From: Candidatus Saccharimonadota bacterium
GTDB taxonomy: Bacteria > Patescibacteriota > Saccharimonadia > Saccharimonadales > Saccharimonadaceae
DNA: 64,000 bases
Assembly: GCA_017432305.1 (NCBI GenBank)
Contig: JAFRJK010000008.1
Location: forward strand, 78,866 to 142,865
Reading direction: 5' to 3'
Both the position numbers and the translations under genes were made by a program. The first letter of the stretch is position 1. Each line of letters begins with the position of its first letter. The notes under the pieces are model-generated. The model worked only from the letters and a program-made list of their open reading frames with translations. It did no database searches and was not told the origin of the DNA. Positions 6,375 through 55,300 of this stretch are shown one piece after another.

Positions 6375-6399
6375 AACTTGCCGAAGGCAAGTTATTTTA
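6375..6399 (+). terminator. Intrinsic terminator (possibly bidirectional)
   Basis: AACTTGCC-gaa-GGCAAGTT followed by ATTTTA. Confidence 0.7.
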
Positions 6400-6915
6400 C
6401 CTTCTATTTCGAATATAATCTAGCCCCTTATTATATCTATTTTCTCTTATCCAATCCGGCTTTTTATTCCCGCCTTTTCTTTCTTTTCCACTTCCGTTTT
6501 CCTTATTATTATATCCGCGAGTCTTAAATCCTTTTGTTTTATTACATCTCGAACAAGTTAGAACGAGATTTTTTGTTGCATTCGTTCCGCCGTAAAAAAG
6601 TGGCACAACATGATCGACATGAGTATAAGGTGTATTAAGCCCAATCAGTCTTTTACACCAAGCACATCTTTTCTTTTGGCAAATCCACTGCTCTCTCTTC
6701 CATTTTTTAAATCGCTCTGATTTTTTTAGTTCCTCAAACTCGTACCGTAATCTCCACCACCGCTCATATCGTGCCTTATTTTCCGCCTTAAAATCTCGAT
6801 ATGGTTTTCTTTCCCATTCTTTTTTTCGTTTCTGCCACTTTAAGAAACTAATTTTACTCATCACCGCGACAAGAAATAATATTACCACAAGAATAAAACA
6901 ACCCACCACTTCCAT
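6397..6915 (-). CDS. HNH endonuclease with an N-terminal transmembrane helix
   Basis: HVDHVVPLFYGGTNATKNLVLTCSRCNKTKG is an HNH motif. Cys pairs CQKKRCAWC are present. The N-terminus VVGCFILVVILFLVAVM is hydrophobic. Confidence 0.75.
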   Translation of the reverse strand: MEVVGCFILVVILFLVAVMSKISFLKWQKRKKEWERKPYRDFKAENKARYERWWRLRYEFEELKKSERFKKWKREQWICQKKRCAWCKRLIGLNTPYTHVDHVVPLFYGGTNATKNLVLTCSRCNKTKGFKTRGYNNKENGSGKERKGGNKKPDWIRENRYNKGLDYIRNRR

Positions 6916-9257: not shown

Positions 9258-9467
9258 TTGGATTTTTGGAGGGGTGGGAGATATTCTCGTAGTGATGGCC
9301 AAATTGCCATGCGGATAGTGGACGGTAACAAATGGGAGAATAAGGCTTTTAGCTCCACTAACGCTTGGAATACACATATGAACCATGCAGCTGGTGGCAC
9401 TGCATCGGTATGGGTTGAAACGAATAATTTTAGAGGAGACGGGTATTTCATCCGTTGCGCAACGGAT
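9258..9467 (+). repeat. FWRGG-IRC cassette E1
   Basis: Head TTGGATTTTTGGAGGGGTGGG at 9258-9278. Tail ATCCGTTGCGCAACGGAT at 9450-9467, shared with E2. Reads LDFWRGGRYSRSDGQIAMRIVDGNKWENKAFSSTNAWNTHMNHAAGGTASVWVETNNFRGDGYFIRCATD. Begins at TTG, not ATG, and has no SD. Confidence 0.85.
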
Positions 9468-9662
9468 AGGAAACCCGAACCCCCGATAATCTGACCAGCC
9501 ATGGTGCACAAAGGTAGTGCTGCCACCAGTATGCAGACCTAGATTAGCGTCAGCTGCACGATCGGACCCAGTAGCACGGTTATACCAAATTCGCCCCCAA
9601 GTAGTACGTACATGTACTTGACCGTAAGAATAATAATATTCCCCACCCCTCCAAAAATCCAA
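9450..9662 (-). repeat. FWRGG-IRC cassette E2
   Basis: Head rc at 9642-9662. Reads LDFWRGGEYYYSYGQVHVRTTWGRIWYNRATGSDRAADANLGLHTGGSTTFVHHGWSDYRGFGFPIRCATD. Converges on E1 and shares its tail palindrome. Confidence 0.85.
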
Positions 9663-9666
9663 CGGA

Positions 9667-9868
9667 TACGCAACGGATATTATTCCCATTACCACGATAA
9701 GGAATACCTTCTACCCAGATGTTAGTAGTAGTGCCATCAAAGCCAGTAGATAGATTAGAGCCATGTGTTGCACTATAAGCGAGATAAGCCCACCAATACC
9801 CAATCTCTATGCGAGCAAAAGCACCACCACTAGTCCGATAATAATACCCACCCCTCCAAAAATCCAAG
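9667..9868 (-). repeat. FWRGG-IRC cassette E3 (tandem with E2)
   Basis: Head rc at 9848-9868. Tail ATCCGTTGCGTA (rc of 9667-9678) abuts the TCCGTTGG lead-in of E2. Reads LDFWRGGYYYRTSGGAFARIEIGYWWAYLAYSATHGSNLSTGFDGTTTNIWVEGIPYRGNGNNIRCVS. An in-frame ATG at 9930 sits behind GAGGAG (9935-9940). Confidence 0.85.
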
Positions 9869-10472: not shown

Positions 10473-10678
10473 CCCAACGGATGATCCATCCAAGACCTCT
10501 CGGGCTATCGGCACTACCCGGGTATACCGTGGTCGAATTATATTGGTTGCCGGCATATATGCTTAGATAATTGCTCCTGTCACTATGGGTTGAACGGCGA
10601 GTTTGCCAGCGACCATGGGTCACACGATAATAGATAGCCCCAGACGTTTCATAATTCCCACCCCTCCAAAAATCCATT
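10473..10678 (-). repeat. FWRGG-IRC cassette E4 (degenerate tail; the only copy starting with ATG)
   Basis: Head rc at 10658-10678 reads ATGGATTTTTGGAGGGGTGGG. Reads MDFWRGGNYETSGAIYYRVTHGRWQTRRSTHSDRSNYLSIYAGNQYNSTTVYPGSADSPRGLGWIIRWV. Tail is ATCCGTTGGGTG. Confidence 0.8.
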
Positions 10679-14516: not shown

Positions 14517-15058
14517 ATCCATTTAATAAGGCGCTTATATTCTTCAGAGTCTTTTTCGTATGAGTCAAGAATATCTTCGGTATAAGTTTTTCCGTTCGAG
14601 ATATTTAAAGTTTCAACTTCTGGGCAAGACGCAAGTAGTCTAATAATTGCCTCGTCAGTATCAATATTCGTCATTGATTTCCTTTTGTCAGTGGAGTGCG
14701 AATGAACGCGGAGTTCTTTATAAACGAACCTCTTGATTCCCGCTTGGAGACAATGTTTAAGACAATTCTCACAAGTTGCAATCATATTATAAAGCGTACA
14801 ACCAGTTAGATCCCTTCCTGCAAAAATTAGCGCGTTCATCTCCGAATGAATCGCAAAATAATATTTCATCGGGCGTTCTGAAAGCGTCATTTTTGATTCG
14901 TCCGCACCTTGGATTGTTCCGTTGTAACCGAAAGAAACTGGTCGCTTTTTTTCATCAACGATTACACACCCATTTTTTGAAGACGGATCCTTTGATTTCT
15001 TCGCAACCGTCTCTGCGATTTCCATGAAATATTCGTCCCAAGACATCTTTTTGTCCAT
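14513..15058 (-). CDS. Deoxycytidylate (dCMP) deaminase / ComEB family
   Basis: HSEMNAL ... CENCLKHCLQAGIKRFVY is the zinc-binding CDA motif (H-x-E, C-x2-C). Confidence 0.8.
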   Translation of the reverse strand: MDKKMSWDEYFMEIAETVAKKSKDPSSKNGCVIVDEKKRPVSFGYNGTIQGADESKMTLSERPMKYYFAIHSEMNALIFAGRDLTGCTLYNMIATCENCLKHCLQAGIKRFVYKELRVHSHSTDKRKSMTNIDTDEAIIRLLASCPEVETLNISNGKTYTEDILDSYEKDSEEYKRLIKWI

Positions 15059-27404: not shown

Positions 27405-27418
27405 CCCCAAAAATCCTA
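27405..27418 (-). repeat. Truncated cassette head remnant
   Basis: The rc reads TAGGATTTTTGGGG and is preceded by conserved spacer S1. The body is missing and tRNA-Thr lies 45 nt further on. Confidence 0.6.
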
Positions 27419-27465
27419 CAGAGCAATATTAGCTGTCTTTAATATTAAAGTTTAATTTTACTCCG
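27419..27465. repeat. Head-to-head junction spacer S1 (47 nt, AT-rich)
   Basis: Reverse complement of S2 (29050-29096) with one mismatch. Confidence 0.85.
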
Positions 27466-27674
27466 TTGGATTTTTGGAGGGGTGGGCAATATGATCGAAG
27501 CTCCGGTAAAGTCGGTGCTCGCCTTTCTCACTTTTGGTCATTTACGCGTTTTTACACATATAGCGAGCTTGGTCGAATATCAATTGTTGCTACTTGGATT
27601 GAAAACAGTACTGGTCTAATTACTTTTGGCACAATGTATGGCGGACATGGAGGTCGTATCCGTTGCGCACGGAT
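27466..27674 (+). repeat. FWRGG-IRC cassette E5
   Basis: Head at 27466-27486. Reads LDFWRGGQYDRSSGKVGARLSHFWSFTRFYTYSELGRISIVATWIENSTGLITFGTMYGGHGGRIRCARI. The 17-nt tail ATCCGTTGCGCACGGAT is shared with E6. Confidence 0.85.
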
Positions 27675-27863
27675 AGAAATCCCACGACCTTTATATTCAG
27701 AAGTACCAGCTACTATATAGCCAGCATTATTTACGATTGACAGTATGAGTAGTTCGCCTCTCTCAGTAATATAGTCCCTATAGATCTGATAATACCCGCC
27801 AATTGCACGGTTATTAACTCCACCCCACGAACGAGTATAGTCCCCACCCCTCCAAAAATCCAA
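27658..27863 (-). repeat. FWRGG-IRC cassette E6
   Basis: Head rc at 27843-27863. Reads LDFWRGGDYTRSWGGVNNRAIGGYYQIYRDYITERGELLILSIVNNAGYIVAGTSEYKGRGISIRAQRI. The Cys is lost through the 1-nt-short palindrome. Confidence 0.85.
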
Positions 27864-27892
27864 GAGAGTAGATTTAATGATATAATATATAT

Positions 27893-28804
27893 ATGTACGA
27901 TATTACGATTATTGGTGCAGGGATTGCCGGAATGACGGCAGCAATTTATGCCCGTCGCGCGAACAAAAAAGTCCTCGTTCTCGAAGGAAAAACTTATGGT
28001 GGACAAATTGTTGAAACTGAAAAAATTGAAAACTATCCTGCAGCCCCTGGTATTGCTGGACCGGAACTCGCAAAAAAAGTTTATGATCAAATGATGAAAT
28101 TTAACCCAGATTTTAAATATGAGAAAGTTTTAGGGATTTCTAAAAATGACGACGGTTTTAAAATAACGACTGACGAAAGCGAATACTCATCAAAAACAGT
28201 TGTCATTGCGACCGGAACGAATTATAAAAAAGCTGGGCTTGAAAATGAAGCTGAGTTGACTGGAAGAGGGGTTTCATATTGTGCAACTTGTGATGGCTCG
28301 CTTTATAGAGATAAAGAAATTGCAGTGTTCGGAGGTGGAAATTCCGCGCTCTACTCCGTACTTTATCTCTCAGATTTAGCCTCAAAAGTCACGGTCATTC
28401 ATCGTCGAAATGAATTTCGTGGAGATGACGCCTTAGTTAAGAAAATCAAAACAAAAGAGAATGTCGACTATAAACTCGGAAAAGTTGTAAGTGAATTAAA
28501 GTCTGAGGACGGAAAGCTTTCGAGTATCGTTTTGAAAAACGTCAAAAATGGCGAAACCGAAGAGTTGAAAGTTGCAGCGCTTTTTGTTGAAATTGGACGT
28601 GAACCGGACAATTCGATTTTTAAAGATTTAGTCGAGCTAGACGAAAAAGGCTATATTAAGGCAGACGAAGACGGGAAAACTTCAGCTTCCGGATTTTTTG
28701 CAGCTGGCGATTGTCGAGCGAAAACTTTAAGACAAATCGTTACGGCAAGCTCAGACGGTGCAGCGGCAGCCTCGAGCGCAATTGAATATTTAAATTCAAA
28801 GTAA
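27893..28804 (+). CDS. trxB: Thioredoxin-disulfide reductase
   Basis: GAGIAGMTAA FAD motif, CATCDG redox centre and GGGNSA NADPH motif. Leaderless: TATAAT at 27881-27886, 6 nt, then ATG. Confidence 0.9.
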   Translation: MYDITIIGAGIAGMTAAIYARRANKKVLVLEGKTYGGQIVETEKIENYPAAPGIAGPELAKKVYDQMMKFNPDFKYEKVLGISKNDDGFKITTDESEYSSKTVVIATGTNYKKAGLENEAELTGRGVSYCATCDGSLYRDKEIAVFGGGNSALYSVLYLSDLASKVTVIHRRNEFRGDDALVKKIKTKENVDYKLGKVVSELKSEDGKLSSIVLKNVKNGETEELKVAALFVEIGREPDNSIFKDLVELDEKGYIKADEDGKTSASGFFAAGDCRAKTLRQIVTASSDGAAAASSAIEYLNSK

Positions 28805-28814
28805 TTATATCCAG

Positions 28815-28860
28815 TTGGATGTTTGGTAGGCATGGCAGTCGCATCCGTTGCACAACGGAG
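28815..28860 (+). repeat. Collapsed cassette Ec (degenerate head fused to tail)
   Basis: TTGGATGTTTGGTAGGCATGG (head-like) plus 7 nt plus ATCCGTTGCACAACGGAG (tail shared with E7). The interior is deleted. Confidence 0.6.
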
Positions 28861-29049
28861 AGGACCGCCATAACCTCGATAATAATAACTCGTAACCCAA
28901 ACACTAGCAAAGCTAGAAGTAACATCTGCGTACAAGCGGGAACTATATTCGGCGTTTATAGCTCGGCGCGACCACCACTGGAAATATCTCCCGCGATTAC
29001 AAACATTCCCGCTAACAGGACAATACAACCCACCCCTCCAAAAATCCAA
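28843..29049 (-). repeat. FWRGG-IRC cassette E7
   Basis: Head rc at 29029-29049. Reads LDFWRGGLYCPVSGNVCNRGRYFQWWSRRAINAEYSSRLYADVTSSFASVWVTSYYYRGYGGPLRCATD. Confidence 0.85.
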
Positions 29050-29096
29050 CGGAGTAAAATTAAACTTTAATATTAAAGAAAGCTAATATTGCTCTG
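29050..29096. repeat. Head-to-head junction spacer S2
   Basis: CGGAGTAAAATTAAACTTTAATATTAAAGAAAGCTAATATTGCTCTG. It is the inverted copy of S1 and is homologous to S3 and S4. Confidence 0.85.
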
Positions 29097-29303
29097 TAGT
29101 ATTTTTAGAGGGGTGGGTATTATGCACGGTCTAGCGGTAGCGTTACTAGTCGCGCCCGTAATAGTTATGGGTGGACTAATAGAGCAGGTAGTGCTACTTC
29201 TTCGTTCGGCCTAATCATGCATCCGCATAATGATCAAGGATTTATAGAATCATCTGCCAATTTCAACCGTGGCCATGGATGGTTTCTCCGTTGCGCAACG
29301 GAT
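29097..29303 (+). repeat. FWRGG-IRC cassette E8 (two TAG stops in the head)
   Basis: Head is TAGTATTTTTAGAGGGGTGGG. The remainder is open: RGGYYARSSGSVTSRARNSYGWTNRAGSATSSFGLIMHPHNDQGFIESSANFNRGHGWFLRCATD. Confidence 0.85.
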
Positions 29304-29492
29304 AGAATTCCCCCACGCTCTTTTGTTATTAGCTTGAGGCCAAACATAGGGGTCATCATCATTTATACCAGTGTCTAAAAGATTATGATGAGTACTTGCT
29401 GTAGCCGTACGGTACGTCATATATCCTCCAGTTGTGCGACCTCGAGGTCTGCCATAGCTACTACTATAACCCCCACCCCTCCAAAAATCCAA
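29286..29492 (-). repeat. FWRGG-IRC cassette E9
   Basis: Head rc at 29472-29492. Reads LDFWRGGGYSSSYGRPRGRTTGGYMTYRTATASTHHNLLDTGINDDDPYVWPQANNKRAWGNSIRCATE. Shares its tail with E8. Confidence 0.85.
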
Positions 29493-29648
29493 CGGAGCAA
29501 GAAGCTGATAAAAAGTAAGTTTACTTACTTTTTAGAAGCGACGCAGGTCCGTCTATAGCGAAGCTAGACGGAGCAAGAAGCTGTCTAAAGCTAAGTTAGA
29601 CGAGGCACTTTTAGACATAACGAGAAAAATATTGTATAATAAACATTA

Positions 29649-31541: not shown

Positions 31542-31748
31542 TTGGATTTTTGGAGGGGTGGGAGATATAAATACAATTCCGGCATAATAGAAAGCCGCCT
31601 CGGACTTAGTGAGTGGTGGGAATTAGTTGCATATTCAGATAACGGCGGGTATTATTTTGATACTTACGATGGCCCCGAAACGTCGTCAGTATGGACTCCG
31701 GGAAGATATAGAAGAGGCCTAGGGCTATTTCTCCGTTGCACAACGGAG
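31542..31748 (+). repeat. FWRGG-IRC cassette E10 (solo)
   Basis: Head at 31542-31562. Reads LDFWRGGRYKYNSGIIESRLGLSEWWELVAYSDNGGYYFDTYDGPETSSVWTPGRYRRGLGLFLRCTTE. Tail is CTCCGTTGCACAACGGAG. Confidence 0.85.
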
Positions 31749-33008: not shown

Positions 33009-33209
33009 TACGCAACGGATATTCATCCCAAATCCCCTATTGTTTCCACCTGAGTTCCAAATACTAGCTTTACCACCGCTAGCAATAGTATTCATATGGG
33101 AACCTTGATAATTAGTGGTTGCATTATTGCCCCACCAAACGCCTGCATGTATGCGCCCGAAAATATTCGCAGAGCCATAAGCTTGACTCCCACCCCTCCA
33201 AAAATCCAA
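33009..33209 (-). repeat. FWRGG-IRC cassette E11
   Basis: Head rc at 33189-33209. Reads LDFWRGGSQAYGSANIFGRIHAGVWWGNNATTNYQGSHMNTIASGGKASIWNSGGNNRGFGMNIRCV. The tail starts on the base after the grpE stop. Confidence 0.85.
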
Positions 33210-33251
33210 TCGGAACAATATTACTATAATACTAAAACTAATTATGCTCTG
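33210..33251. repeat. Head-to-head junction spacer S3
   Basis: TCGGAACAATATTACTATAATACTAAAACTAATTATGCTCTG. It contains a TATAAT. Confidence 0.8.
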
Positions 33252-33466
33252 TAGTATTTTTGGAGGGGTGGGTATTACGATCGCGAAGGTGTTGGTCGCA
33301 TTTCAAATCGCATTTCCTATAGCGCCTTTCTAACAAATTACCAATTTGAAGTTGGGCCGAACAATGGCGCCGCTCTCGTTTCTCGAATTGGTGATGGAAC
33401 TACCGTAACGTGGGTGCCAGGGATTTCTAACAAGGCGTTTGGGTTTTCTATCCGTACGCAACGGAT
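33252..33466 (+). repeat. FWRGG-IRC cassette E12 (TAG at the first head codon)
   Basis: Head is TAGTATTTTTGGAGGGGTGGG. Reads YFWRGGYYDREGVGRISNRISYSAFLTNYQFEVGPNNGAALVSRIGDGTTVTWVPGISNKAFGFSIRTQR. Confidence 0.85.
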
Positions 33467-33652
33467 AGCAATTCCATAACTTCTGTTGCTAGTAGAATAA
33501 AAGAAATGAGCAGTGCCGTTCGTATCATATTTCGAGTTTAGATAGTATGCCGTTGTAGCTCCAGCAGCAACTTTCATCCATGACCTACCGCCTTCAAGTC
33601 GTCCCACAACAGCACCATTAACACCATACTGACCACCCCTCCAAAAATCCAA
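33450..33652 (-). repeat. FWRGG-IRC cassette E13
   Basis: Head rc at 33632-33652. Reads LDFWRGGQYGVNGAVVGRLEGGRSWMKVAAGATTAYYLNSKYDTNGTAHFFYSTSNRSYGIAIRCVRI. Confidence 0.85.
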
Positions 33653-33697
33653 TCGGAACAATATTACTATAATATTAAAAGAACTAATTATGCTCTA
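33653..33697. repeat. Head-to-head junction spacer S4
   Basis: TCGGAACAATATTACTATAATATTAAAAGAACTAATTATGCTCTA. About 90% identical to S3 by eye. Confidence 0.8.
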
Positions 33698-33897
33698 TTA
33701 GATTTTTGGAGGGGTGGGTACTATACTAGGTCATTTGGCGCTGCTAGTAGCCGTAACGCGAGTGGATTTTGGTGGGCGGGTTATGCTCTTGGTGGATCTA
33801 GCCGTGTACTAAATACTGGCATCACCGATGGGGGATATACTGGACCGCAAAGTGAATACCATGCTGGTGGAGGACTCTATATCCGTGCGCAACGGAT
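33698..33897 (+). repeat. FWRGG-IRC cassette E14 (TTA at the first codon)
   Basis: Reads LDFWRGGYYTRSFGAASSRNASGFWWAGYALGGSSRVLNTGITDGGYTGPQSEYHAGGGLYIRAQR. There is no start codon in frame. Confidence 0.85.
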
Positions 33898-34089
33898 GAA
33901 GAACCCCCAGGTCCTGCGGTTGTTTGCCGGCACATAAACACTAACTTTTGAACCTTCGTTTTGAATATCAGAAGCTAGATACCAAGCTTTTTCTTCCGAA
34001 CCAGCAACACTAGTCCACCAGTTCCCCCATGTTGTACGGTCACGGATAATGATATTAGACCAATAAGTCCCACCCCTCCAAAAATCCAA
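33881..34089 (-). repeat. FWRGG-IRC cassette E15
   Basis: Head rc at 34069-34089. Reads LDFWRGGTYWSNIIIRDRTTWGNWWTSVAGSEEKAWYLASDIQNEGSKVSVYVPANNRRTWGFFIRCARI. Confidence 0.85.
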
Positions 34090-34128: not shown

Positions 34129-34734
34129 ATGGATGAGAGAGTAGAAAAAATCAAAGCTTGGCTTGGGACTGGCAGTATCAACATTTTTGGACTTCCAATG
34201 AGCGGAAAAGACACCGTCGGTCTCCGCCTTGCGAAAATGTTAGGCGCCGAATTTTTATCTTCCGGCGAAATAATCCGCGAATATGAAGATAAACAAAACG
34301 ACCACATGACCGAAAACGGAAAGCTGATCCCGACCGATAAATTCTACGACATTGTTCTTCCATATTTTCACAATGAAGATTTAAAAGATAAGCCTCTAGT
34401 TTTAAGTTCAATCGGCCGTTGGGAAGGCGAAGAGGATGAGGTAATTGAAAACGCAAAACGAGCTAACCACGAAATAAAAGCCGTTATTCATCTCGATTTG
34501 GCTGAAGAAGATGTTAGAGAGCGCTGGAAGGCAGCGAAAGAACTCGGCGATCGTGGAATTCGTGGTGACGATGCTGACCCGAAAGTTTTTGAAACGAGAA
34601 TCAAAGAGTTCCACGAAAAAACTATCCCGGTTTTAAATCACTACTATGAACTCGGAGCTCTAATTGAAGTCGATGCAAGCGGTACTCGTGACGAAGTCTT
34701 TGAAAATGTCTTAAACGCCTTAAGTGTGCTATAA
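34129..34734 (+). CDS. Adenylate/nucleoside-monophosphate kinase-like protein
   Basis: P-loop FGLPMSGKDTVG, then SSGEIIRE and a LID-like RGDD. Divergent from canonical Adk. Confidence 0.55.
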   Translation: MDERVEKIKAWLGTGSINIFGLPMSGKDTVGLRLAKMLGAEFLSSGEIIREYEDKQNDHMTENGKLIPTDKFYDIVLPYFHNEDLKDKPLVLSSIGRWEGEEDEVIENAKRANHEIKAVIHLDLAEEDVRERWKAAKELGDRGIRGDDADPKVFETRIKEFHEKTIPVLNHYYELGALIEVDASGTRDEVFENVLNALSVL

Positions 34735-34744
34735 TGGACTTATT

Positions 34745-35761
34745 ATGTACGGGTCCGGTTTTTCAAAAGAAAAGATAAAAAAGAAAATTCGTGCTGCGAA
34801 CTATATTACCGTTGCACAGATTTTCCTAAAAGACAATTTTTTACTAGATCGCCAGCTTATTAGCGATGATATCAAGCCGAGGTTACTCGGCCACTGGGGA
34901 ACTTGTCCTGGTGTGAATATCGCTTATAACTGTTTAAAATCCTACTTTGATGATGAGAACTTTTCATTTATTTTAGGACCTGGCCACGGTTTTCCTGCAC
35001 TTCAGGCTAACTTATTTATTGAAGGTGAAATTGAAAAAGTTGATAAAAAAGCGACAAGAAATCGCTCCGGTCTTGAATATATTTGCAAAAACTTTTCCTG
35101 GCCTGGTGGTTTTCCATCCCACTGTACTCCAGTTACTCCTGGCGTAATTTGTGAAGGTGGTGAACTTGGCTACGCTTTTGCGATGGCTTACGGCTACGTT
35201 CTCGGACATCCTGAAAAAACTACTGCCGTCCTAATTGGCGATGGCGAATTTGAAACTGCAACCGCGCTCGCTTCGATGAACTTGAACAAAATGTTAAGTG
35301 GAAAAAATAATGGTAGTGTTCTTCCGATTCTTCATCTTAACGGTTATAAAATTTCCGCGCCGACGATTGCTGGGCGAAAATCTGAGAGGGAATTAAATGA
35401 ATTAGTCCGTGGCTTTGGATTCACTCCGATTCTTGTTCGTGGTGATAACGAGGATGCGGAAGCGGCGATTGACTACATCATCGATGATTTTGAAAATGCT
35501 TTGAAAGAAGCTGATGAAATCTTTAGAGCAATTAAACGTGGTGAGAAGAAAAACCCACCATTTATTATTATGAAAACCGACAAAGGCTTAACCGGCCCAG
35601 AAGAATTAAATGGCGAAAAACTCCGTGGGAACTTTAAGTCGCATCAAGTTCCTTTACCCAATGCTAAAACTGATAAAAACGAACGTGAAATCCTTGAAAA
35701 ATGGCTATCTTCATATCGCTTTATTGAACTTTTCGATGAAGAGAAAGGGTTTGTAATATAA
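34745..35761 (+). CDS. xfp: Phosphoketolase, N-terminal part (split gene)
   Basis: RLLGHWGTCPG, GPGHG, EGGELGY, GDGE and PILHLNGYKI motifs. It ends with the stop/start overlap TAATG. Confidence 0.8.
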   Translation: MYGSGFSKEKIKKKIRAANYITVAQIFLKDNFLLDRQLISDDIKPRLLGHWGTCPGVNIAYNCLKSYFDDENFSFILGPGHGFPALQANLFIEGEIEKVDKKATRNRSGLEYICKNFSWPGGFPSHCTPVTPGVICEGGELGYAFAMAYGYVLGHPEKTTAVLIGDGEFETATALASMNLNKMLSGKNNGSVLPILHLNGYKISAPTIAGRKSERELNELVRGFGFTPILVRGDNEDAEAAIDYIIDDFENALKEADEIFRAIKRGEKKNPPFIIMKTDKGLTGPEELNGEKLRGNFKSHQVPLPNAKTDKNEREILEKWLSSYRFIELFDEEKGFVI

Positions 35762-36945
35762 TGACTGAGAAAAAATCTACTGCAAGAACTTTTGGTGAAA
35801 TGCTAAAAAACGAGGTGAAAAATAATGAGAAATTTTATTTCTTCTCCCCGGACGAAACAACAAGTAATCGCCTCGACGCAATCTACGATGAAACGACTCG
35901 CGCTTGGTCGAATTTAAATATTGAACCACAAGATCTTCCGGAGGGTGACGGTGGACACATTATCGAGCTTCTCTCCGAGAATACACTTTTCTCGGTCATG
36001 ATTGGCCACATTATGGCTGGCGAACCGGCAATGATGGCGAGCTACGAAAGCTTCTTCACGATTATCGTTAGTCAAATTCTCCAACAACTAAAGTTCTTTG
36101 AACAAAGCGAAACTGTTAGCTTCCGTCCGGATTATCCGGCAGTAAATCTTTTAAGTACTAGCACTTGTTGGCGCCAAGATCATAACGGCTTTTCACACCA
36201 ATCTCCGATGCTTGTCTCGGCACTTCTCGAACGCCCTGGCAATAAAGTAAACTGTCTTTTCCCAGTTGATAGTGAATCTGCGAAAGAAACTTTTAAATTC
36301 ATGATGAATAGTGAAAATGTTGTAAATCTTACAACATTCAACAAAACCGAAGAGCCACAATACATTAATCCTGAACACGCTAAATACCAATTTGAAAATG
36401 GCGCGAGTGTCTTCAACCTTAATAATAAACGCGGTGAATTTGTTGACCCTGGAAAAGAAGGTCTCGGCGAAGCGGATATTGTTTTCGCGACTGCTGGTGA
36501 CATTGCAACTCGTGAAGCTATCGAAGCAATCAAATCTCTAAAAGAAGATTTTCCAAAAGCAAACTTCAGACTTATTAACATCCTTGCGCTTTCGCACGAT
36601 AAAATCGGTACAACCGAAAACCAAATGGATAAAAATACCTTTGATAAAATGTTTGGCAAAGTTGCTCCAATTATTACGAATTTCCATGGCTATGCTGACG
36701 CACTTAAAAATATCATCGGAAACTATACTGACGAAACTCGCGTGATTGCACATGGTTTTGAGGAACACGGTTCGACAACCACTCCGTTTGATATGCTTGC
36801 ACTAAACCACGCAAGTAGATACGACCTTGCGCTTGATGTTGCAAAAGAAATGCATCGCCCTGATCTTGTTGAAAAATATGAAGATCTTATCGCCCAGAAT
36901 TCCGGCCACGCCCGCGAGTTCGGCGAAGACTTGGTTGAGCTTTAG
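35761..36945 (+). CDS. xfp: Phosphoketolase, C-terminal part (split gene)
   Basis: FSPDETTSNRL and WRQDHNGFSHQSP motifs typical of the middle and C-terminal XFP domains. Confidence 0.8.
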   Translation: MTEKKSTARTFGEMLKNEVKNNEKFYFFSPDETTSNRLDAIYDETTRAWSNLNIEPQDLPEGDGGHIIELLSENTLFSVMIGHIMAGEPAMMASYESFFTIIVSQILQQLKFFEQSETVSFRPDYPAVNLLSTSTCWRQDHNGFSHQSPMLVSALLERPGNKVNCLFPVDSESAKETFKFMMNSENVVNLTTFNKTEEPQYINPEHAKYQFENGASVFNLNNKRGEFVDPGKEGLGEADIVFATAGDIATREAIEAIKSLKEDFPKANFRLINILALSHDKIGTTENQMDKNTFDKMFGKVAPIITNFHGYADALKNIIGNYTDETRVIAHGFEEHGSTTTPFDMLALNHASRYDLALDVAKEMHRPDLVEKYEDLIAQNSGHAREFGEDLVEL

Positions 36946-45150: not shown

Positions 45151-45361
45151 CTACGCAACGGATTGAAAGACCACTTCCCCGCCGGTCGCCATCTCCTGTA
45201 TTACTCATAGAAATATTAGTTGTTCCAGCGTCTTGTCCGGTTACGAGACAAGCTGCGGAGTCATTAGAAAAGGTATATTTTCCTCTGTAGCGCCCATTAG
45301 ATAAGCGCCCCCAAATACCACCCATGCTACGACCATAAGCCCCACCCCTCCAAAAATCCAA
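45151..45361 (-). repeat. FWRGG-IRC cassette E16
   Basis: Head rc at 45341-45361. Reads LDFWRGGAYGRSMGGIWGRLSNGRYRGKYTFSNDSAACLVTGQDAGTTNISMSNTGDGDRRGSGLSIRCVAE, then a stop. Confidence 0.85.
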
Positions 45362-45433
45362 TGGAGCAAGAAGCCTCTAAAGAGGTTAGAGGGGTTGTTT
45401 TTTTTAGATTTTTTAGTATAATAATAAAGACTT

Positions 45434-45511
45434 GGTGGGATTAGCTCAGATGGTTAGAGCGTCTGATTGTGGTCCAGAAGGTCGTCGGTTCGATCCCGAT
45501 ATCCCACCCCA
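45434..45511 (+). tRNA. tRNA-His (anticodon GTG) with encoded G-1 and CCA
   Basis: G-1 plus GTGGGAT/ATCCCAC acceptor, C73, loop TTGTGGT, T-arm GGTTCGATCC. Confidence 0.85.
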
Positions 45512-45550
45512 GTAAGAACCGAGCAAACGAGAAAGTTCATTTTCTCACTT

Positions 45551-45625
45551 GCGAGTGTAGTACAGCGGTTAGTATGCAAGTTTTCCAAACTTGAGATGAG
45601 GTTTCGACTACCTCCACTCGCACCA
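45551..45625 (+). tRNA. tRNA-Gly (anticodon TCC), CCA encoded
   Basis: GCGAGTG/CACTCGC acceptor, anticodon arm CAAGT-TTTCCAA-ACTTG, T-arm GAGGT-TTCGACT-ACCTC. Confidence 0.9.
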
Positions 45626-45627
45626 AA

Positions 45628-45650
45628 AACCCTTCGGGGTTATTTTTGTT
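45628..45650 (+). terminator. Intrinsic terminator (UUCG loop) after the tRNA pair
   Basis: AACCC-ttcg-GGGTT followed by ATTTTTGTT. It ends 7 nt before the E17 head. Confidence 0.7.
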
Positions 45651-45656
45651 GTTCTC

Positions 45657-45864
45657 TTGGATTTTTGGAGGGGTGGGTATTATTCTAGTTCGAACGGTGG
45701 TATTTGGGGTCGCATTATAGCAAAATTCATGCGGACGAAGGTGACCGTAGACGGCGATCGTAGTGGCGACATTAATACTGGTGTGATGAGTGGCGAGACT
45801 ACCACTTTCGTAGCTTCATCTTGGGCAGACCCTCGAGGTGCGGGGTATTTTATCCGTTGCGTAG
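45657..45864 (+). repeat. FWRGG-IRC cassette E17
   Basis: Head at 45657-45677. Reads LDFWRGGYYSSSNGGIWGRIIAKFMRTKVTVDGDRSGDINTGVMSGETTTFVASSWADPRGAGYFIRCVA, then a stop. Confidence 0.85.
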
Positions 45865-48816: not shown

Positions 48817-50508
48817 ATGAAAAAAATAGGAATCTTTGGCTGGCTTGTAATCATAATCATAGCCGGCGCAGGTTTAACTTGGGTAGTTGGGCACGGTTTC
48901 AACTATCTTAAGAACTGGAAAGCAGAAATGGCGCAATATGACGACAATATCGACGGTTTAACGAGCGCCGATGGAACTGTCGCGAATACTAGCGAGAACA
49001 AGGTTTCCGTGAACGAAGTTACGCCCGACGTTGGAGAAGATGAATGGGCAAAAGCCGAAGCTGAGGCTAAGGCAGAACTCGCGGCGGAAGCCGAAGCGGA
49101 GAATGAGGGTTTAGACCCGACCGACCCGCTTTACGACCTGAAGCTCAGTCTTCTTGTTAATATCGACGAAGAAACTCTCGCGAAATTAGAGAGTTTTCCG
49201 CTCGATTTCGATGACAGCTCAATGCCGAATCGGAATGAAGAGCGAACCCTCGCCGCTTCTAAAGTTGGCTGGGGAACGGAAGGAAAGCGTATGTATGATG
49301 CAGTTGCTTTTCCTTACGCGAACGTCGAGAAAGACAAGAAGTACACGAAGGAAGATGCTGAAGCGATGGATCGTGAACAGCGCGCGAGAAACATCCAGAA
49401 CCTTGTGGTTCAAAAGATGATTCTCGATGCCTGGGCTTACATCACAATCCAGGATGGCACTTCGGTTGCGGGAGTCAACAAAGAGTGGGTAGATATATAC
49501 AACGATTACTACAAACAGTATGGACTTGGTGCGTTCGTAACGTACCATACGAAATACTGGGAGAAGTACGGAATAGAATTACCCCACGACGGTGAGAGTA
49601 AGAAGGAATGGTATAAAAACCATCCTGACGCTCCTCCAATCACAAAAGAGCTTAAGGAAATCGTCTTAAACAACGACGGCTCGAAAAAGCTTTTCGTATC
49701 CGCTTATTCCGAGAAAATCGGAAAGCGAATTAACGCGTGGTTAGACCGCTGTACGCTCGAAGGTGTCGAGAAGTATTCGACTTGGAATTATTGGTACTTG
49801 AACGACCAACTCAATGCGAATTGGGTTGAGGCGCTTCATAACACCGATAAGGATAAGGTCGAGACTTTACTCGCAAATATGTATGCCGTTTACGTTAAAT
49901 ACGATAACGGCAAAGAGCGTGTCATCCTCGTAGGTTTTAATATCTACGACGGGCGAATCATCATCGTTGAGCCGAAGGCTAAGCCGGCAACGGCGAAGCC
50001 GAGTTCAAATACCGGGAAGAAGCCTTCGGGGAAATCACCAACCCCGCAAAGCATAACATCTGTAATTCCGGTTAACCCAACTCCTACCCCGACAGGCACT
50101 CCAACGCCTACGCCTACGCCAGTTCCGTCACCTACACCCGTACCGGATCCGGAGAAAAATCCTCTGGATGACCCTGTCCATAAGGGTAATGCGGATACTG
50201 GCGGAAAGGATAATGTTCCCGGTCAATCTGATCCTGGCGCGCCTAGCGAAGATCATTCGAAGGATGACATGCAGGACGCTGGCGGTGGCTCCGATAACAA
50301 CGGAGGCCACTCTGATCCCGTCACAGTCACTCCTGAAACTCCTGGCGGAGGCGACTCCGGCGGAAGTGGCGGTTCCGGTGGCTCCGGTGGCGGAGACGAC
50401 GAAAACAAACAAAATTATGGCGATGACGGTGGGTCTGGCTCTAATAATGGTGGAGACGACGGCAGCGCTGGAAACGGCGGCGAAGAAATTACATTACCAC
50501 CAACCTAA
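48817..50508 (+). CDS. Membrane-anchored or secreted protein with a PT-rich linker and Gly/Asp-rich tail (563 aa)
   Basis: N-terminal TM segment, then PTPTPTGTPTPTPTPVPSPTPVP and a GGSGGSGGSGGG tail. No catalytic motif recognised. Confidence 0.55.
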   Translation: MKKIGIFGWLVIIIIAGAGLTWVVGHGFNYLKNWKAEMAQYDDNIDGLTSADGTVANTSENKVSVNEVTPDVGEDEWAKAEAEAKAELAAEAEAENEGLDPTDPLYDLKLSLLVNIDEETLAKLESFPLDFDDSSMPNRNEERTLAASKVGWGTEGKRMYDAVAFPYANVEKDKKYTKEDAEAMDREQRARNIQNLVVQKMILDAWAYITIQDGTSVAGVNKEWVDIYNDYYKQYGLGAFVTYHTKYWEKYGIELPHDGESKKEWYKNHPDAPPITKELKEIVLNNDGSKKLFVSAYSEKIGKRINAWLDRCTLEGVEKYSTWNYWYLNDQLNANWVEALHNTDKDKVETLLANMYAVYVKYDNGKERVILVGFNIYDGRIIIVEPKAKPATAKPSSNTGKKPSGKSPTPQSITSVIPVNPTPTPTGTPTPTPTPVPSPTPVPDPEKNPLDDPVHKGNADTGGKDNVPGQSDPGAPSEDHSKDDMQDAGGGSDNNGGHSDPVTVTPETPGGGDSGGSGGSGGSGGGDDENKQNYGDDGGSGSNNGGDDGSAGNGGEEITLPPT

Positions 50509-50560
50509 TTCATCCCAATCATTCGGGGAACGACAAACCACATATGATGTACCTTATACT

Positions 50561-50584
50561 TGGGGGAGCTCATTTGCTCCCCCA
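50561..50584 (+). terminator. 9-bp GC-rich hairpin at the island end
   Basis: TGGGGGAGC-tcattt-GCTCCCCCA with no clear T-tract. Confidence 0.45.
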
Positions 50585-50728
50585 GTATCCAAAAATTTGT
50601 ATTTGAGACGATTCGGTTTTATATGGTTAAGACGAAAATTAACAATTCGGCTAGCAAACCATTTATAAAACCATCTTTTATATTAACTTTAATTTTTTTA
50701 TTTCTACTTAAATTAAGAAAGGAGCTTT

Positions 50729-52186
50729 ATGAAAAAAGCTATTAAAATCGCTGCGATTACTGCTGCTGTCGTTGCTGCTGGTGCAGTTACAACCGCTGTA
50801 GTTTCCGCTTGGGGTGATAACACCGGCGGTCGTAGAACCTATACTGTCGACGAGATCAACAAAGGTGCTCTTGGCGACAAAATCGTCTTTAACTCAATTA
50901 AAGACGACACTCTTCCAAAAGATAATATCCACGATGAACGTAACTTCGTTGGCGCTCGTGACGCTACCGTCGCTAACAATGGTTGGAACGGTAATGATAT
51001 CGAAGTTGAAGAAGGTAAAACTTATTATGTTCGCCTTTACGTCCACAACAATAACCCTAAAGGTACAAAAGCTGTAGCAAAGGACGTTACTGTTAACTTT
51101 AGCCTCCCAACCGTCGTTTCTACTGAACAACGTGTTGATGGTTATATTAACGCTTCGAACGCAACTCCTTCTAAATATTGGGATGACGTTGTGTTCAAAT
51201 CAAAAGATGGTCGTAAATTCTACCTCGATTATATCGAAGGTTCCGCACTTCTCGAAAACAACAGCGTCGGTAAAAAACCTGGCCTAACCCTTTCGGATAG
51301 TGTTGTTACTTCCGGTACAAAAATCGGTTATGATGCTTTAAATGGTGAAGTTCCTGGCTGTTACCAATATGCTAACTACATCACAATTAAAGTTAAACCA
51401 GTTTTCGAATCTTCTGAGATTCAAAAGACTGTTCGTAAACTTACTGATGAAAAGTTTAGTGAGAGCGTAACTGCTAAAATTGGTGAAACTGTCGAGTATC
51501 AAATTCTTTATAAGAACTTAAACAACTCGGAAGTTAAAGATGTCACCCTTCGTGACTCTCTCCCAACCAACATGGAATATATTAAGGGTTCAACAATCCT
51601 TTACAACTCTAACAACCCTAAAGGCTTAACTTATAACACTAACGATAAACTCACAACTGAGGGTATTAATATCGGTGGTTATAAAGTTGGTGGTAACGCA
51701 TACATTCGTTTCCGCGCAACTGTTAAAGATGCAAGCCTCGTTTGTGGCAATAACCGCCTTATTAACTGGGCAAAAGCTGTGAACCGCGTTGGTACTTCGA
51801 CAAATGTCGACTACTTCGCAGTCCAAGATTCTGCAATTGTCCTCGTCGATAAAGAATGTGAAAAGCCAGAAATTGTTAAATGTACAATTAAAGATGGTAA
51901 ATACTATGGCAAGGCAGGCAACGTTGTCGATGAAGCAACTTACAAGGAAGAATGTGAAAAGCCAGATGATCCAGAGACTACAAAATGTGCAGTCAAGGAT
52001 GGCAAATATTATGGTAAGGATGGCGCAATCGTAGACGAAGCTACCTACAAGAGAGAATGTGAAAGCCCAGAAGATAAGAAACTCCCAGATACTGGTGCAT
52101 CAGCAATCGCTGCTGGCGCAGTTGGTCTTGGTGGTACCGTTTCCGCTGCTGGTTACTACATCGCTAGCCGCAAACAATTACGCTAA
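50729..52186 (+). CDS. LPXTG cell-wall-anchored surface protein (DUF11/TIGR01451-like repeat domain plus Cys-bracketed tandem repeats)
   Basis: Signal peptide. GETVEYQILYKNLNNSEVKDVTLRDSLPTNMEYIKGS. A C-terminal LPDTG, hydrophobic stretch and RKQLR sorting signal. Confidence 0.8.
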   Translation: MKKAIKIAAITAAVVAAGAVTTAVVSAWGDNTGGRRTYTVDEINKGALGDKIVFNSIKDDTLPKDNIHDERNFVGARDATVANNGWNGNDIEVEEGKTYYVRLYVHNNNPKGTKAVAKDVTVNFSLPTVVSTEQRVDGYINASNATPSKYWDDVVFKSKDGRKFYLDYIEGSALLENNSVGKKPGLTLSDSVVTSGTKIGYDALNGEVPGCYQYANYITIKVKPVFESSEIQKTVRKLTDEKFSESVTAKIGETVEYQILYKNLNNSEVKDVTLRDSLPTNMEYIKGSTILYNSNNPKGLTYNTNDKLTTEGINIGGYKVGGNAYIRFRATVKDASLVCGNNRLINWAKAVNRVGTSTNVDYFAVQDSAIVLVDKECEKPEIVKCTIKDGKYYGKAGNVVDEATYKEECEKPDDPETTKCAVKDGKYYGKDGAIVDEATYKRECESPEDKKLPDTGASAIAAGAVGLGGTVSAAGYYIASRKQLR

Positions 52187-52241
52187 TTAAAGGCCGCTCT
52201 AAGTATAAAACTTAGGCGCTAGCACGAGTTAGCGCACGAAG

Positions 52242-52277
52242 ATCCCCCAACTCGAAAGACGCGGGGGATTTTTGTTG
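52242..52277 (+). terminator. Intrinsic terminator
   Basis: ATCCCCC-14 nt-GGGGGAT followed by TTTTGTTG. Confidence 0.65.
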
Positions 52278-52346
52278 TAAAAACCTCGCTGTCCGCCGGA
52301 AAGTATGTTGACCTTATCAATATGCTTATGGTATAATTTACCCGTG

Positions 52347-55300
52347 ATGGGTCAACACAAAAAACTCCTAACTCCTCTTAAAGTTGCTTGTCTTGTTTTT
52401 TCATTTTTCGCCCTCACTTTTATCATTAACACAATCTCGACCAATTCTGTTCACGCGGCGGAAACTAAATGTCTCCAATTCAGCTATAAATTCAATGGAA
52501 AAAGCGGCTATAAATCCGCTCCGGTTTGTTTCCCAGTCGAAAATGGGAAGATAACTAAAGCTTCTGAATTTACCGTGAACGGGGGGAATCATTACGGCGA
52601 TACTGCCGCTTGGGATGTCTGCGATAGTGCAACTGGTCTTTGTACGATTGCTAACAATAATAATGGGGTCTACATCGGTTTTGGTCTTAAAAACGGCGCG
52701 AATGATACTGGTTATGGCGACCCTACAGCAGTTTGTAGCTCATCAGGCTTTAAAGTGTATGGCTGTTCGAGTAATGGCGGTTATAAACCAGTAAAAGATG
52801 GAGACGATTGGGAAGCGACTGTAACGGCGTTTAATAATTTCTATAAAGATTACCTCGCTAAGGGCCAGCTCAGTTACATCGATCCAGTAACCGGTGAATC
52901 AGTTGATATTAATGTCGAGTACGAAGGCAATGCATCTAGTAAAGCTAGTAAAGAAAATGAAGTCGACCCAGGCACCGGTGATGTAATAATTAACCCAGGC
53001 ACCGGCGACATTATTACGGAGGAACCGACCGAGGACGATGATGGCGAAATCGATAGCCGTGAAGCAGGTTGTTATCAGGAATCAGGCTCGATGGGCTGGA
53101 TTATTTGTCCAATGATTTTTGGTATGAGAGACGTTGCGACCGGTATTTATGATGGAATTGAAGGTTTTCTCCAAATTAGCGACAGTATCGTCGGAAGCAT
53201 TACTGAAGGCACATCGGGTAGCGGCTCAATCTTTAATGCTTGGACACTATTTAGGAATATCGCAAACATTCTCTTCGTAATCTTCTTCCTCTTTGTTATT
53301 TTCTCTCAACTCACTGGTTACGGAATTGATAACTACGGGATTAAGAAAATGCTCCCGAAACTCATTATTACTGCGATTCTTGTTAACCTTAGCTTTATTA
53401 TTTGTGCTATCGCAGTTGATATTTCGAATATCCTAGGACACACATTAAATAACTTCTTCTCCACTCTTTCAGTAAACGCTTCAATAAACGGTGCCGCTAT
53501 CGATGCTGCAAACCCTGCCGCAACAATTAGACAAATCATTGCTTATGTAGTCGATACTGCATTAGTGGTTGGCGCTACTGGCGGTATTTTAGCAGCCAGT
53601 ATCGCGCTCGGTGGTTGGTCGCTCGTGCTTCCAATCCTTCTCTTCCTCCTCACTTTTGTTATCTCGGTTGTCTTCGCCTTTGTTGCACTTGGTCTTCGTC
53701 AGGCTGCTGTCGTTGTCTTAATTGCAATCGCTCCAGTCGCATTCGCTCTTAATATCCTGCCGAATACGGAGAAATACTTTAAGAAGTGGATCGATGCGTT
53801 TAAGGGCGTTCTTGTAGTTTATCCAATTATCGGCGCTCTTGTCGGTGGTGGCAACTTTGCTGGCCGCGTCTTAATTGGAACTGGCGGCGATTTCTTAATG
53901 GTTCTTGTGGCGGGGCTTCTCTTCGTTGTTCCATTCTTCCTAATTCCATCCTTAACTCGTAAATCACTTGACGGTATCGGGAATCTCGGTAGTCGTCTCC
54001 AAGGCCTCCGCCGTGGTGCAACTGGCAGTGCTCGAAACGCTATAAATGGCACTCAAGCTGCAAAGAACTTCCGTTCTGACATGAACGAACGTCAGGCTCA
54101 AGCTCGTGCTCAAAGATACTTAAACTCTCGTCGCGGCCGAAGAACTAGAGAAGCTCTTGAACGTGGAGACAATGTCAGTATAAGACAAGCACGTAGATTC
54201 TCTCGTGCTCAAGAATTGGCACAAACTGGAACCAAAGCCAATCTTGCTGCTTATGACACTACACTTAGTGCAACCGAAACAGGAAATAAACTCACTCGTA
54301 TGCAAAATGAAGGTTTTGCTGCACGTGAGGCTGGTATTAGAAACAAAGCTCTCGAAGATGCGATTACTGACCAAATGGCACTTTATGAAGATGACGGCAC
54401 ATTTAGCAACCTCAGTAAATTCCAAACCGAGGTCGAAAATGCCGCCGCAAATAACGACAGTGCAAAACTCGAAGCTTTAATGCGTACTGCTGCAAAAGGT
54501 AATGACCATCAACGCGAGCATCTCATTCTCGGTATGAACAACGCATTCCGAAGTGGCAACGTCAGTGAAGAGATGGCCGCGAGATATGCTGGGCATATCC
54601 AAAGTAATGGTATCTATAAAACACAAGATCGCTCTGCAAACGACCAAGCTGACCATATCATGAGATTGATTAACGGTGAAATAAATGGGCAGACTTATGC
54701 TAGCGCTAATGGCGCAGATCTCATTTCGGATAACTTCGCTGGTAGAGGTATTATTAATGGTAAACAGACTGGCGCTATGGCCTTTAACTTTGATGACGGC
54801 GAATTTAATACGCTTGTTAGAGGCATGAACAATTTGTCTAGTGATGATAGAAAAAAGATTTCCGAAACGATGGGGAACGCGCTTTATCTAAAACAAAACG
54901 ATCCAACTGGGCAATATAATAATGTTAAGCCTGAAACTCTTGACCAAATCCGAAAAGTTATTGCTGCGGCAAACGGTATGGATGTTAATAATGCATCTCA
55001 GGAAGCAATAAACGCCTTTGTTAATAATGGCGACTATATCCACCAACCAGAAAGTGTCCTAAATGTCGACCATAGCAATAGTGGGAATCAAGGCCAACAA
55101 TACTTCGATAATGACGGGAACCCTACCTGGGATGCTGGTGGTAGTAATCCGGCTCCGACTCAACCTACTCCGCCGACACCTACGCAGCCCGCTCCAACTA
55201 CTCCACGTCCAACTTCACAAGCTCAAAGTTATTTCGACGATAATGGCAACGCTACCTGGGATGCTGGAACTCCAGCTCCGGTCCAACCGGTTTCGGCGCC

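Follow-up and report, generated by a model that had tools for sequence, protein, structure and literature searches.

The 64,000-nt stretch of contig JAFRJK010000008.1 analyzed here, referred to below as the window, belongs to a Candidatus Saccharimonadota bacterium and carries trxB, the thioredoxin reductase gene, between two nearly identical inverted repeat arms. The closest relatives of this TrxB are from Candidatus Saccharibacteria. The question raised by the locus is whether the arms constitute a switch that inverts trxB, or whether they belong to another system that only happens to surround the gene. The repeat is probably a recently duplicated junction between cassettes in a silent archive of variable-repeat modules, which would serve a surface lectin diversified by a diversity-generating retroelement (DGR) located outside the window. 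All of the evidence comes from assemblies.

The initial annotation described a 71-nt repeat around trxB. Its letters are present at 27416-27486, and the repeat finder lengthens the pair to 78 nt, with 76 of the 78 positions complementary (97%) and the arms 1542 nt apart. A whole-window repeat scan agrees that this is the longest and best-conserved repeat of the 64 kb; the second-ranked repeat, a head-spacer-head junction pair at 33190-33274 and 33633-33720, reaches only 92% over 89 nt. The segment between the arms contains cassettes E5 and E6, trxB, the collapsed cassette Ec and cassette E7, as described (Table 1). Both arms are built alike, with a TAG-type head (CTCTG TAG...), a spacer of about 37 nt, and the TTG-type head of the next cassette. 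The earlier description of an arm as spacer plus head needs correction: the left arm is not made from one cassette but holds the truncated head of a lost cassette, a spacer and the E5 head, so that the order of truncated head, spacer and E5 head mirrors that of E7 head, spacer and E8 head at the right. The whole region reads tRNA-Thr(-), truncated head, spacer, E5(+)/E6(-), trxB(+), Ec(+)/E7(-), spacer, E8(+)/E9(-), and lepA. A TATAAT box ends 6 nt before the ATG of trxB (27881-27895), consistent with the leaderless transcript proposed for this gene. The motif TAAT(A/T)T is found before many cassette heads with the same spacing as that between TATAAT and ATG in trxB.

The heads in the arms belong to a larger family. 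A 19-nt head, GGATTTTTGGAGGGGTGGG, is present in 17 copies on both strands of the window with at most 3 mismatches, while 0 are expected from 100 shuffles. The head codes (T)TG GAT TTT TGG AGG GGT GGG, or L/M-D-F-W-R-G-G, and from each head a frame of 64-69 codons extends to G-x-x-I/L-R-C at a palindrome with the consensus ATCCGTTGC/GCAACGGAT. Ten of the cassettes stand in five pairs, tail to tail, with the fusion exactly after the Cys codon, and the remainder are single or tandem. A hidden Markov model (HMM) built from the 17 cassettes recovers those copies, adds the tail-only remnant Ec, and detects no larger gene in the window. All cassette sites are intergenic: yebC/recX, tRNA-Thr/trxB/lepA, lepA/hrcA, grpE/adk, and tRNA-His and tRNA-Gly. 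Among the window open reading frames (ORFs) of at least 150 aa, no recombinase, transposase or reverse transcriptase was recognized, and tRNAs were the only known RNA families in the window. The partners of a pair are no closer to each other than to non-partners, which rules out diverged inverted duplicates. Derivation of the spacer from target coding sequence was also rejected, as similarity is confined to about 15 nt upstream of the head.

The cassettes are constrained as coding modules. In 935 body codons no stop is present in frame 0, whereas each of the five alternative frames has 29-101 (P about 1e-26), and third positions are pyrimidines in 65% of frame 0 codons against 37-41% in other frames. 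Divergence among the bodies has reached saturation (49 +/- 3% nucleotide identity), in line with the earlier claim that the cassette bodies beside the repeat are unrelated. The conserved fold-type residues of the bodies use 3-5 synonymous codons each, while residues in the head and tail use about one codon each: GAT 15/15, TTT 17/17, AGG 17/17, GGT 17/17, ATC 14/14, and CGT 17/17. The synonymous variation in the bodies and the frozen codons in the head and tail indicate selection at the protein level on the former and constraint at the DNA level on the latter. Several heads have TAG or TTA in place of the start TTG. No consensus promoter was predicted in the spacers, which ruled out the spacer as a promoter. 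An NNY codon footprint of DGR mutagenesis was sought in the cassettes and dismissed, as the excess is weak (65% vs 60%).

The cassette module, about 66 aa, covers the final third of a lectin domain of the FISUMP / Fib_succ_major (Lcl_C-like) family. Single cassettes gave no match in Pfam and NCBIfam, and the cassette profile gave only noise against PDB sequences. The AlphaFold model from the 17-sequence alignment had a predicted local distance difference test (pLDDT) score of 54, too poor to be used. An exhaustive profile search revealed 171 relatives of the module, while a word-indexed protein search gave only 2 outside the window. A few full-length proteins end in the module. One of them, P0131, is a 564-aa protein with an N-terminal hydrophobic segment and the C-terminus ...NGAP-LDFWRGG...YIRCVARQ.

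The P0131 gene, found in contigs L081 and L082, is followed by a 331-aa ORF and by a 375-aa reverse transcriptase (RT) with the RVT_1 domain. The nearest solved relative of the RT is that of 8ub7 (328 aa, E = 4e-24), which we take to be the RT of the Bordetella phage DGR. The 331-aa ORF between the target and the RT, a candidate Avd-type accessory gene, has no family match. The last 268 nt of the P0131 gene, with downstream sequence, recur as an inverted copy after the RT with 90% identity. Between the variable repeat (VR), here VR1, and the template repeat (TR), 19 of 19 body mismatches coincide with adenines of the template (changed to G in 7 cases, T in 6 and C in 6), and the other differences are limited to the 5' edge and the tail, as expected for the initiation of mutagenic homing (IMH) sequence against IMH*. 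The homology of TR and VR begins at TTTGGAGGGGTGGG, inside the head, and the tail ATCCGTTGCG constitutes the IMH region. Two points are absent from the initial annotation, namely the coding nature of the head and its role as a boundary of a DGR variable repeat. VR2, a truncated free-standing copy of the 3' end of the P0131 gene 9.5 kb away, differs from the TR only at adenines (16/16). Among 12 protein variants (90% cluster), residues 1-501 are invariant and variation is seen only at AAY-templated positions of the last 60 or so residues; the DGR is active. The L081/L101 locus has three marks of a DGR: adenine-only mismatches between TR and VR, a DGR-type RT by the TR, and hypervariation confined to the VR. 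Contigs of the DGR locus and contigs identical to the window come from common samples, namely ERZ28654787 (L082, L004), ERZ28019131 (L102, L002), and ERZ27256804 (L105, L006), and the two regions presumably belong to one genome.

Some minor features were observed around the TR. A perfect 26-nt direct repeat, AATAGACTAATGATTAAGTGGGTTTC (L081:14072-14097 and 14626-14651), heads two similar segments of about 150 nt (72%) that flank the TR; they may be structured RNA, and no Rfam match was found. A tail-only fragment with the IMH and the GC-rich hairpin region lies between the RT and the TR (L081:13938-14018) and is 98-100% identical to the VR version, not to that of the TR. The short Asn-rich ORFs P0133, P0147, and P0179 look like translated TRs of related Saccharibacteria DGRs, and P0133 matches the VRs of P0272-P0276.

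The window cassettes themselves are not current VRs of this DGR. Against the only available TR, the 17 cassettes show 34-46% mismatch at non-A sites, compared with 3% for a true VR, and they are 100% identical across four independent assemblies. They carry the IMH-like tail, while the GC-rich downstream region is absent and the palindrome shared with the partner cassette stands in its place. An exception is E9' of the sister strain L077, which resembles the TR (15% non-A mismatch) and has taken the place of E9, with the exchange limited precisely to the stretch from head to tail.

The link between the cassette family and the expressed gene comes from allele P0391, found on five contigs of up to 203 kb. 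Its residues 1-501 are identical to those of P0131, and its C-terminal module is unrelated. In a 13.7-kb alignment of L101 with L081, with identical TRs, all 93 of the 93 differing columns fall inside the VR and 0 outside. The VR of L101 has in common with a free-standing cassette in L105 an exact tract of 127 nt (138/139), and its first 55 or so nt differ; the VR of P0391 is therefore a mosaic. A second copy of the L105 cassette is present in L083, within the ortholog of the cluster at 33-34 kb of the window. It differs from the P0391 VR at four positions, all ordinary transitions and none at donor adenines, which ruled out RT-templated copying of a free cassette into the VR. Replacement of the VR by a mosaic with a 127-nt match is itself an observation, and it indicates that the expressed VR was replaced by gene conversion from a silent archive. 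For P0391, a chimera made in assembly is hardly believable, because the tail common to donor and recipient is only about 11-14 nt. In allele P0394 (L103), the gene is joined at the head to the orphan P0149 and the rpsJ flank of that orphan (L104). This join is ambiguous between a reciprocal crossover at the 24-28-nt head and an assembly chimera, because the hypervariable VR could make an assembler jump at such a head.

The sole difference in the 139 nt common to the orphan tail at L105:~1840 and the L101 VR is T vs C in ATAT(T/C)CGTTG, and the L105 orphan holds the TR-type (IMH*-like) base. L081 and L082 also differ at that tail position (11674 in VR1; 744 in VR2 close by).

Comparison of close strains places the breakpoints all at heads, which bears out the earlier suggestion that duplication was recent and recombination is ongoing at the junctions. 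L078 (TrxB 86%) lacks 29058-29500, with the breakpoint inside the head, and therefore the spacer of the right arm is missing. In L077 (TrxB 96%), the bodies of E6 and E9 are new, and the spacer-E8-E9' block is placed after a second ACGGAG, 76 nt away. L006 corresponds to the window from the E5 head onward, with a spacer that is reverse-complemented and carries the diagnostic base of junction J1 itself. In L083, junction J3 is flipped relative to the 33252+ body. The identity profiles alternate between blocks of 100% and blocks of 57-90%, a pattern that points to a freely recombining population. The region of trxB itself (27844-28816) is such a strain mosaic: L077 is 100% identical from 28318 on and 73-93% before, and L078 is 98-100% identical at both ends and 57-88% mid-gene, with the neighbouring lepA at about 96-97%.

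No such variation was seen in the orientation of trxB. Identical TrxB is encoded on 23 contigs; orientation was read on L001-L004, which carry at least one flanking gene, and 17 contigs were grouped as similar, orientation not inspected. The initial annotation proposed that recombination between the arms would invert trxB and named in advance a single orientation and relatives lacking one arm as evidence to the contrary. L001-L004, L077, and L078 all have the orientation of the window, and L078 is without the right-arm spacer. L005 (27463-29058, 10 samples) breaks inside both arms, as a collapsed repeat would, and in the distant relatives L079 and L080, which have no cassettes, trxB is arranged differently. 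An inversion switch of trxB is unsupported.

These results can be joined in one explanation, in which the arms are copies of a head-to-head junction in a silent cassette archive that feeds a DGR-diversified FISUMP-lectin gene by gene conversion. It is favored here as the probable reading. The cassettes would be promoterless, truncated copies of the last 66 or so codons of a FISUMP-lectin surface protein gene located elsewhere in the same genome population, with the head marking where TR/VR homology begins on the 5' side and the palindromic tail corresponding to the IMH region. The short homologies of head and tail, with internal motifs such as TGGTGG, would permit segmental gene conversion at the DNA level into the expressed variable module, and the DGR could then overwrite the converted module by adenine mutagenesis. 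The same short repeats would also recombine mutually, giving rise to the indels, body swaps and flipped spacers seen between strains. Such recombination would recently have duplicated the TAG-type head and spacer end that now stands in opposite orientations on the two sides of trxB. The arms would be nearly identical because the head is conserved at the DNA level and the TAG-type head/spacer end is a young copy; the flanking bodies would be unrelated because an archive under diversifying selection should look so. The same lectin tip appears to be varied in two ways, by the archive and by the retroelement.

A broader proposal is offered more tentatively, with somewhat less confidence than doubt. 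Two engines may act on one 66-codon lectin module: the DGR would rewrite adenine-templated codons, and an archive of dozens of silent, diverged cassettes would swap the scaffold by segmental conversion via the homing head and IMH of the DGR. The head would then be dual-purpose, and where inverted heads stand between essential genes, as they do near trxB, the chromosome would tend to undergo head-to-head inversions; L103 is possibly the first instance.

Several points weigh against gene conversion from an archive. The direction of transfer, from archive to expression site, is one that we infer rather than observe, and no window cassette was caught as a donor. The donor role of the window cassettes themselves and the recombination enzymology of the conversion are presumptive, and about 10-18 nt of tail homology is little for RecA-type exchange. 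No single contig joins the window to the DGR locus, and the join in P0394/L103 may have been made by the assembler at the 24-28-nt head. The archive reading does not account for the pairing of cassettes tail to tail, with the fusion exactly after Cys. Decay is visible in the stop of the E8 head, in 1-nt tail deletions in three cassettes, in the collapsed Ec and in the truncated head, and such decay is expected of junk as well as of silent archives. These signs of decay, including the TAG in E8 and the IRAQR/IRTQR tails, are also what would be seen if the cassettes were functionless relics, that is, 3' fragments or old VRs scattered by illegitimate recombination, with the repeat as a by-product and the 127-nt match as the result of copying out of the expressed gene. 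The stability and identity of the cassettes across assemblies and the absence of any match between window cassettes and the current TR agree with relics, and VR2 shows that the 3' end of the target can be duplicated as a free fragment. Neutral relics, however, would not retain 935 codons without a stop, the fold residues, and frozen heads and tails at about 49% identity, and the P0391 VR, which combines two or more sources against a clonal background, agrees better with conversion into the gene than with copying in the opposite direction. Relics are thus an unlikely explanation, though one to be taken seriously.

Activity of the arms as an inversion switch for the 1.5-kb segment with trxB and its promoter is very improbable. 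The nearly identical inverted arms exist, L006 and L083 have flipped short spacers where two heads are inverted, L103 may have arisen by reciprocal crossover at a head, and the orientation of trxB differs in the distant L079 and L080; but every inspected flank-spanning contig, as well as L077 and L078, has one orientation, the right-arm spacer is missing from L078, no site-specific recombinase is found among the window ORFs of at least 150 aa, and L079 and L080 have no cassettes. No regulatory effect is obvious either, when the flipped gene carries its own promoter. It is equally hard to regard each cassette as an independent gene of about 70 aa with a leaderless TTG start and a TAATAT-like -10 box in the spacer. 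The open frames with codon periodicity, and the TAAT(A/T)T 7-8 nt upstream of many heads with the TATAAT-ATG spacing of trxB, would suit such genes, but four heads are without a usable start (TAG in E8 and 33252+, TTA in 33698+, and the truncated remnant). The module covers only the last third of the FISUMP domain and gives a poor structure model (pLDDT 54), no signal peptide or full promoter is predicted, and the same module is the C-terminus of the 564-aa protein. The inverted ends of the pairs, their intergenic location near tRNA genes, and the position of the spacer-E8-E9 block, which differs by 76 nt between the window and L077 and follows ACGGAG in both, recall mobile elements. The pairs of about 405 bp would then resemble MITEs (transposable elements of miniature size with inverted repeats), with heads as terminal inverted repeats, moved in trans by a transposase or the DGR RT. 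This is highly unlikely, since the bodies are all different (about 49% identical) and protein-constrained, no target-site duplication was seen and no transposase found, cassettes are also single and tandem, and RT-mediated copying is excluded for the one transfer testable.

Silent-cassette gene conversion is represented by Neisseria pilE/pilS, Borrelia vlsE/vls, Mycoplasma genitalium MgPar, and the Anaplasma msp2 functional pseudogenes. As in these systems, one expressed gene, here of 564 codons and full length, coexists with many truncated, promoterless partial copies, which here lack the N-terminal 500 aa and in some cases a start; a variable core lies between short conserved sequences, and it has been replaced in a clonal background by segmental mosaic transfer with a donor-matching tract. 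The donors are dispersed in a small genome, as in MgPar and msp2. Unlike in these systems, the recipient is also a DGR variable repeat, with two mechanisms on one module, the donors are in inverted pairs with a common palindromic end, and the host is a non-pathogen epibiont (Saccharibacteria); the donors are also far more diverged (about 35% aa identity) than vls or pilS copies. The literature search also gave two papers in this field (PMC2632889, PMC3899283). DGRs with FISUMP-type VRs and with remote and tiny targets are already known (PMC5758913). CLec2-type (DUF1566/Fib_succ_major) VRs are exemplified by Legionella LdtA, and remote targets by Treponema denticola (Wu et al. 2018, PMC5758913), and DGR clades restricted to the candidate phyla radiation (CPR) have been described (PMC8144416). 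Like CLec2-type DGRs, the L081 locus has an RT and adenine-only TR/VR mismatches, its VR closes the gene of a lectin-fold surface protein at the 3' end, IMH and IMH* differ, a GC-rich hairpin region follows downstream, and VR2 is a second target that is not adjacent. In the window cassettes, head and tail are the VR boundaries. The window cassettes differ from DGR VRs in their non-A mismatch to the TR of about 40%, in the absence of the downstream hairpin region and of the N-terminal 500 aa, and in the tail-to-tail fusion after the Cys codon. No description was found of a DGR whose expressed VR is replaceable wholesale by non-TR sequence, as it is here, and coupling of a DGR with silent donor cassettes was reported nowhere in the literature searched.

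Shufflons and multiple-inversion systems, such as R64 pilV/Rci, the G segment of phage Mu, and Min of p15B, also have convergent pairs of alternative C-terminal segments, each of which opens with a short conserved inverted repeat inside coding sequence. Spacers between inverted repeats are found flipped here as well, although they are only about 50 nt. Unlike in shufflons, no dedicated recombinase was found nearby (window ORFs of at least 150 aa), the trxB segment has one orientation in the inspected contigs, and the cassettes are scattered among housekeeping genes, apart from the expressed gene. The switch in P0391 keeps both flanks, which points to conversion rather than inversion.

DGRs are thought to be limited to the sequence space of one template, in which only adenine positions vary and the scaffold is fixed. 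If the archive swaps the scaffold, the reachable diversity of a host-attachment lectin would increase by orders of magnitude. It would be, to our knowledge, the first case of cassette-type gene conversion coupled to a retroelement, and it would occur in an epibiotic CPR bacterium with a tiny genome. The archive would also account for the 6% or so of repeat DNA in this housekeeping region, for the breaks of assemblies there, and for the cassettes that gene callers miss or mis-call.

Table 1. Cassettes, repeat arms, and associated features of the window.
Feature	Position	Strand	Remark
Left arm, junction J1: truncated B-type head remnant, spacer, E5 head	27409..27486	.	Repeat finder
Right arm, junction J2: E7 head, spacer, E8 head start	29029..29106	.	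Beyond head, absent in relative L078
Truncated head remnant CCAAAAATCCTACAGAGCAA of lost TAG-type cassette	27407..27426	-	Adjoins tRNA-Thr
trxB (thioredoxin reductase)	27893..28804	+	Inside repeat, no part of cassette system; TATAAT 6 nt before ATG
E5 (LDFWRGGQYDRSS...GRIRC)	27466..27666	+	VR-type module
E6	27666..27863	-	Tail-to-tail partner of E5; 1-nt tail deletion giving IRAQR; unrelated body in strain L077
Ec, collapsed cassette	28814..28860	+	Degenerate head joined straight to tail palindrome
E7	28852..29049	-	98-100% conserved in L077, L078
E8	29097..29294	+	TAG-type head (TAG TAT TTT TAG), untranslatable alone, yet open RGG to RC
E9	29295..29492	-	Body in L077 swapped exactly between head and tail for TR-like body (E9')
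Solo copy of cassette upstream flank ACGGAGCAAGAAGCTG	29568..29583	-	Site of spacer-E8-E9' block in L077
Cassette	9258..9458	+	Paired with 9662-
Cassette	9459..9662	-	Paired with 9258+
Tandem cassette	9670..9867	-	Tail runs directly into head of 9662-
Cassette	10474..10677	-	Head with ATG; tail degenerate (IRW)
Single cassette between lepA and hrcA	31542..31739	+	Palindromic tail
Five-cassette cluster between grpE and adk	33012..34089	.	33209-, 33252+/33652-, 33698+/34089-; junctions J3, J4
Cassette	45155..45361	-	Head toward tRNA-His and tRNA-Gly
Cassette	45657..45860	+	Head toward tRNA-His and tRNA-Gly from opposite side

At 45305-45713, tRNA-His and tRNA-Gly lie between facing heads (68-nt arms, 78% complementary), the second such case for essential genes. 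Outside the window, a scan of genome contigs with a 17-mer gave 70 single matches, approximately the chance number, of which only that in L060 (Nanosyncoccus) resembles a real truncated head. A scan of metagenome contigs with the 19-mer head gave 15 matches and 0 cassettes by the HMM. In other organisms, P0139, P0152, P0156, P0157, P0159, P0160, and P0165 are ORFs through 2-4 tandem FISUMP C-terminal fragments, sometimes with an apparent translated tRNA sequence between the fragments, and other lineages may have cassette arrays like those of the window.

A free-standing HNH endonuclease gene is located by tRNA-Met and ruvA (6397-6915), and no link to the cassettes was found. Large ORFs of 563, 485, and 1088 aa at 48817-55571 have no family match but a weak one to DUF11 and may be surface proteins. 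The phosphoketolase at 34724-36945 consists of two abutting ORFs (XFP_N, then XFP + XFP_C), which may reflect a frameshift, a sequencing error or a true split, and the H+-PPase in L081 (939-3159) is split likewise.

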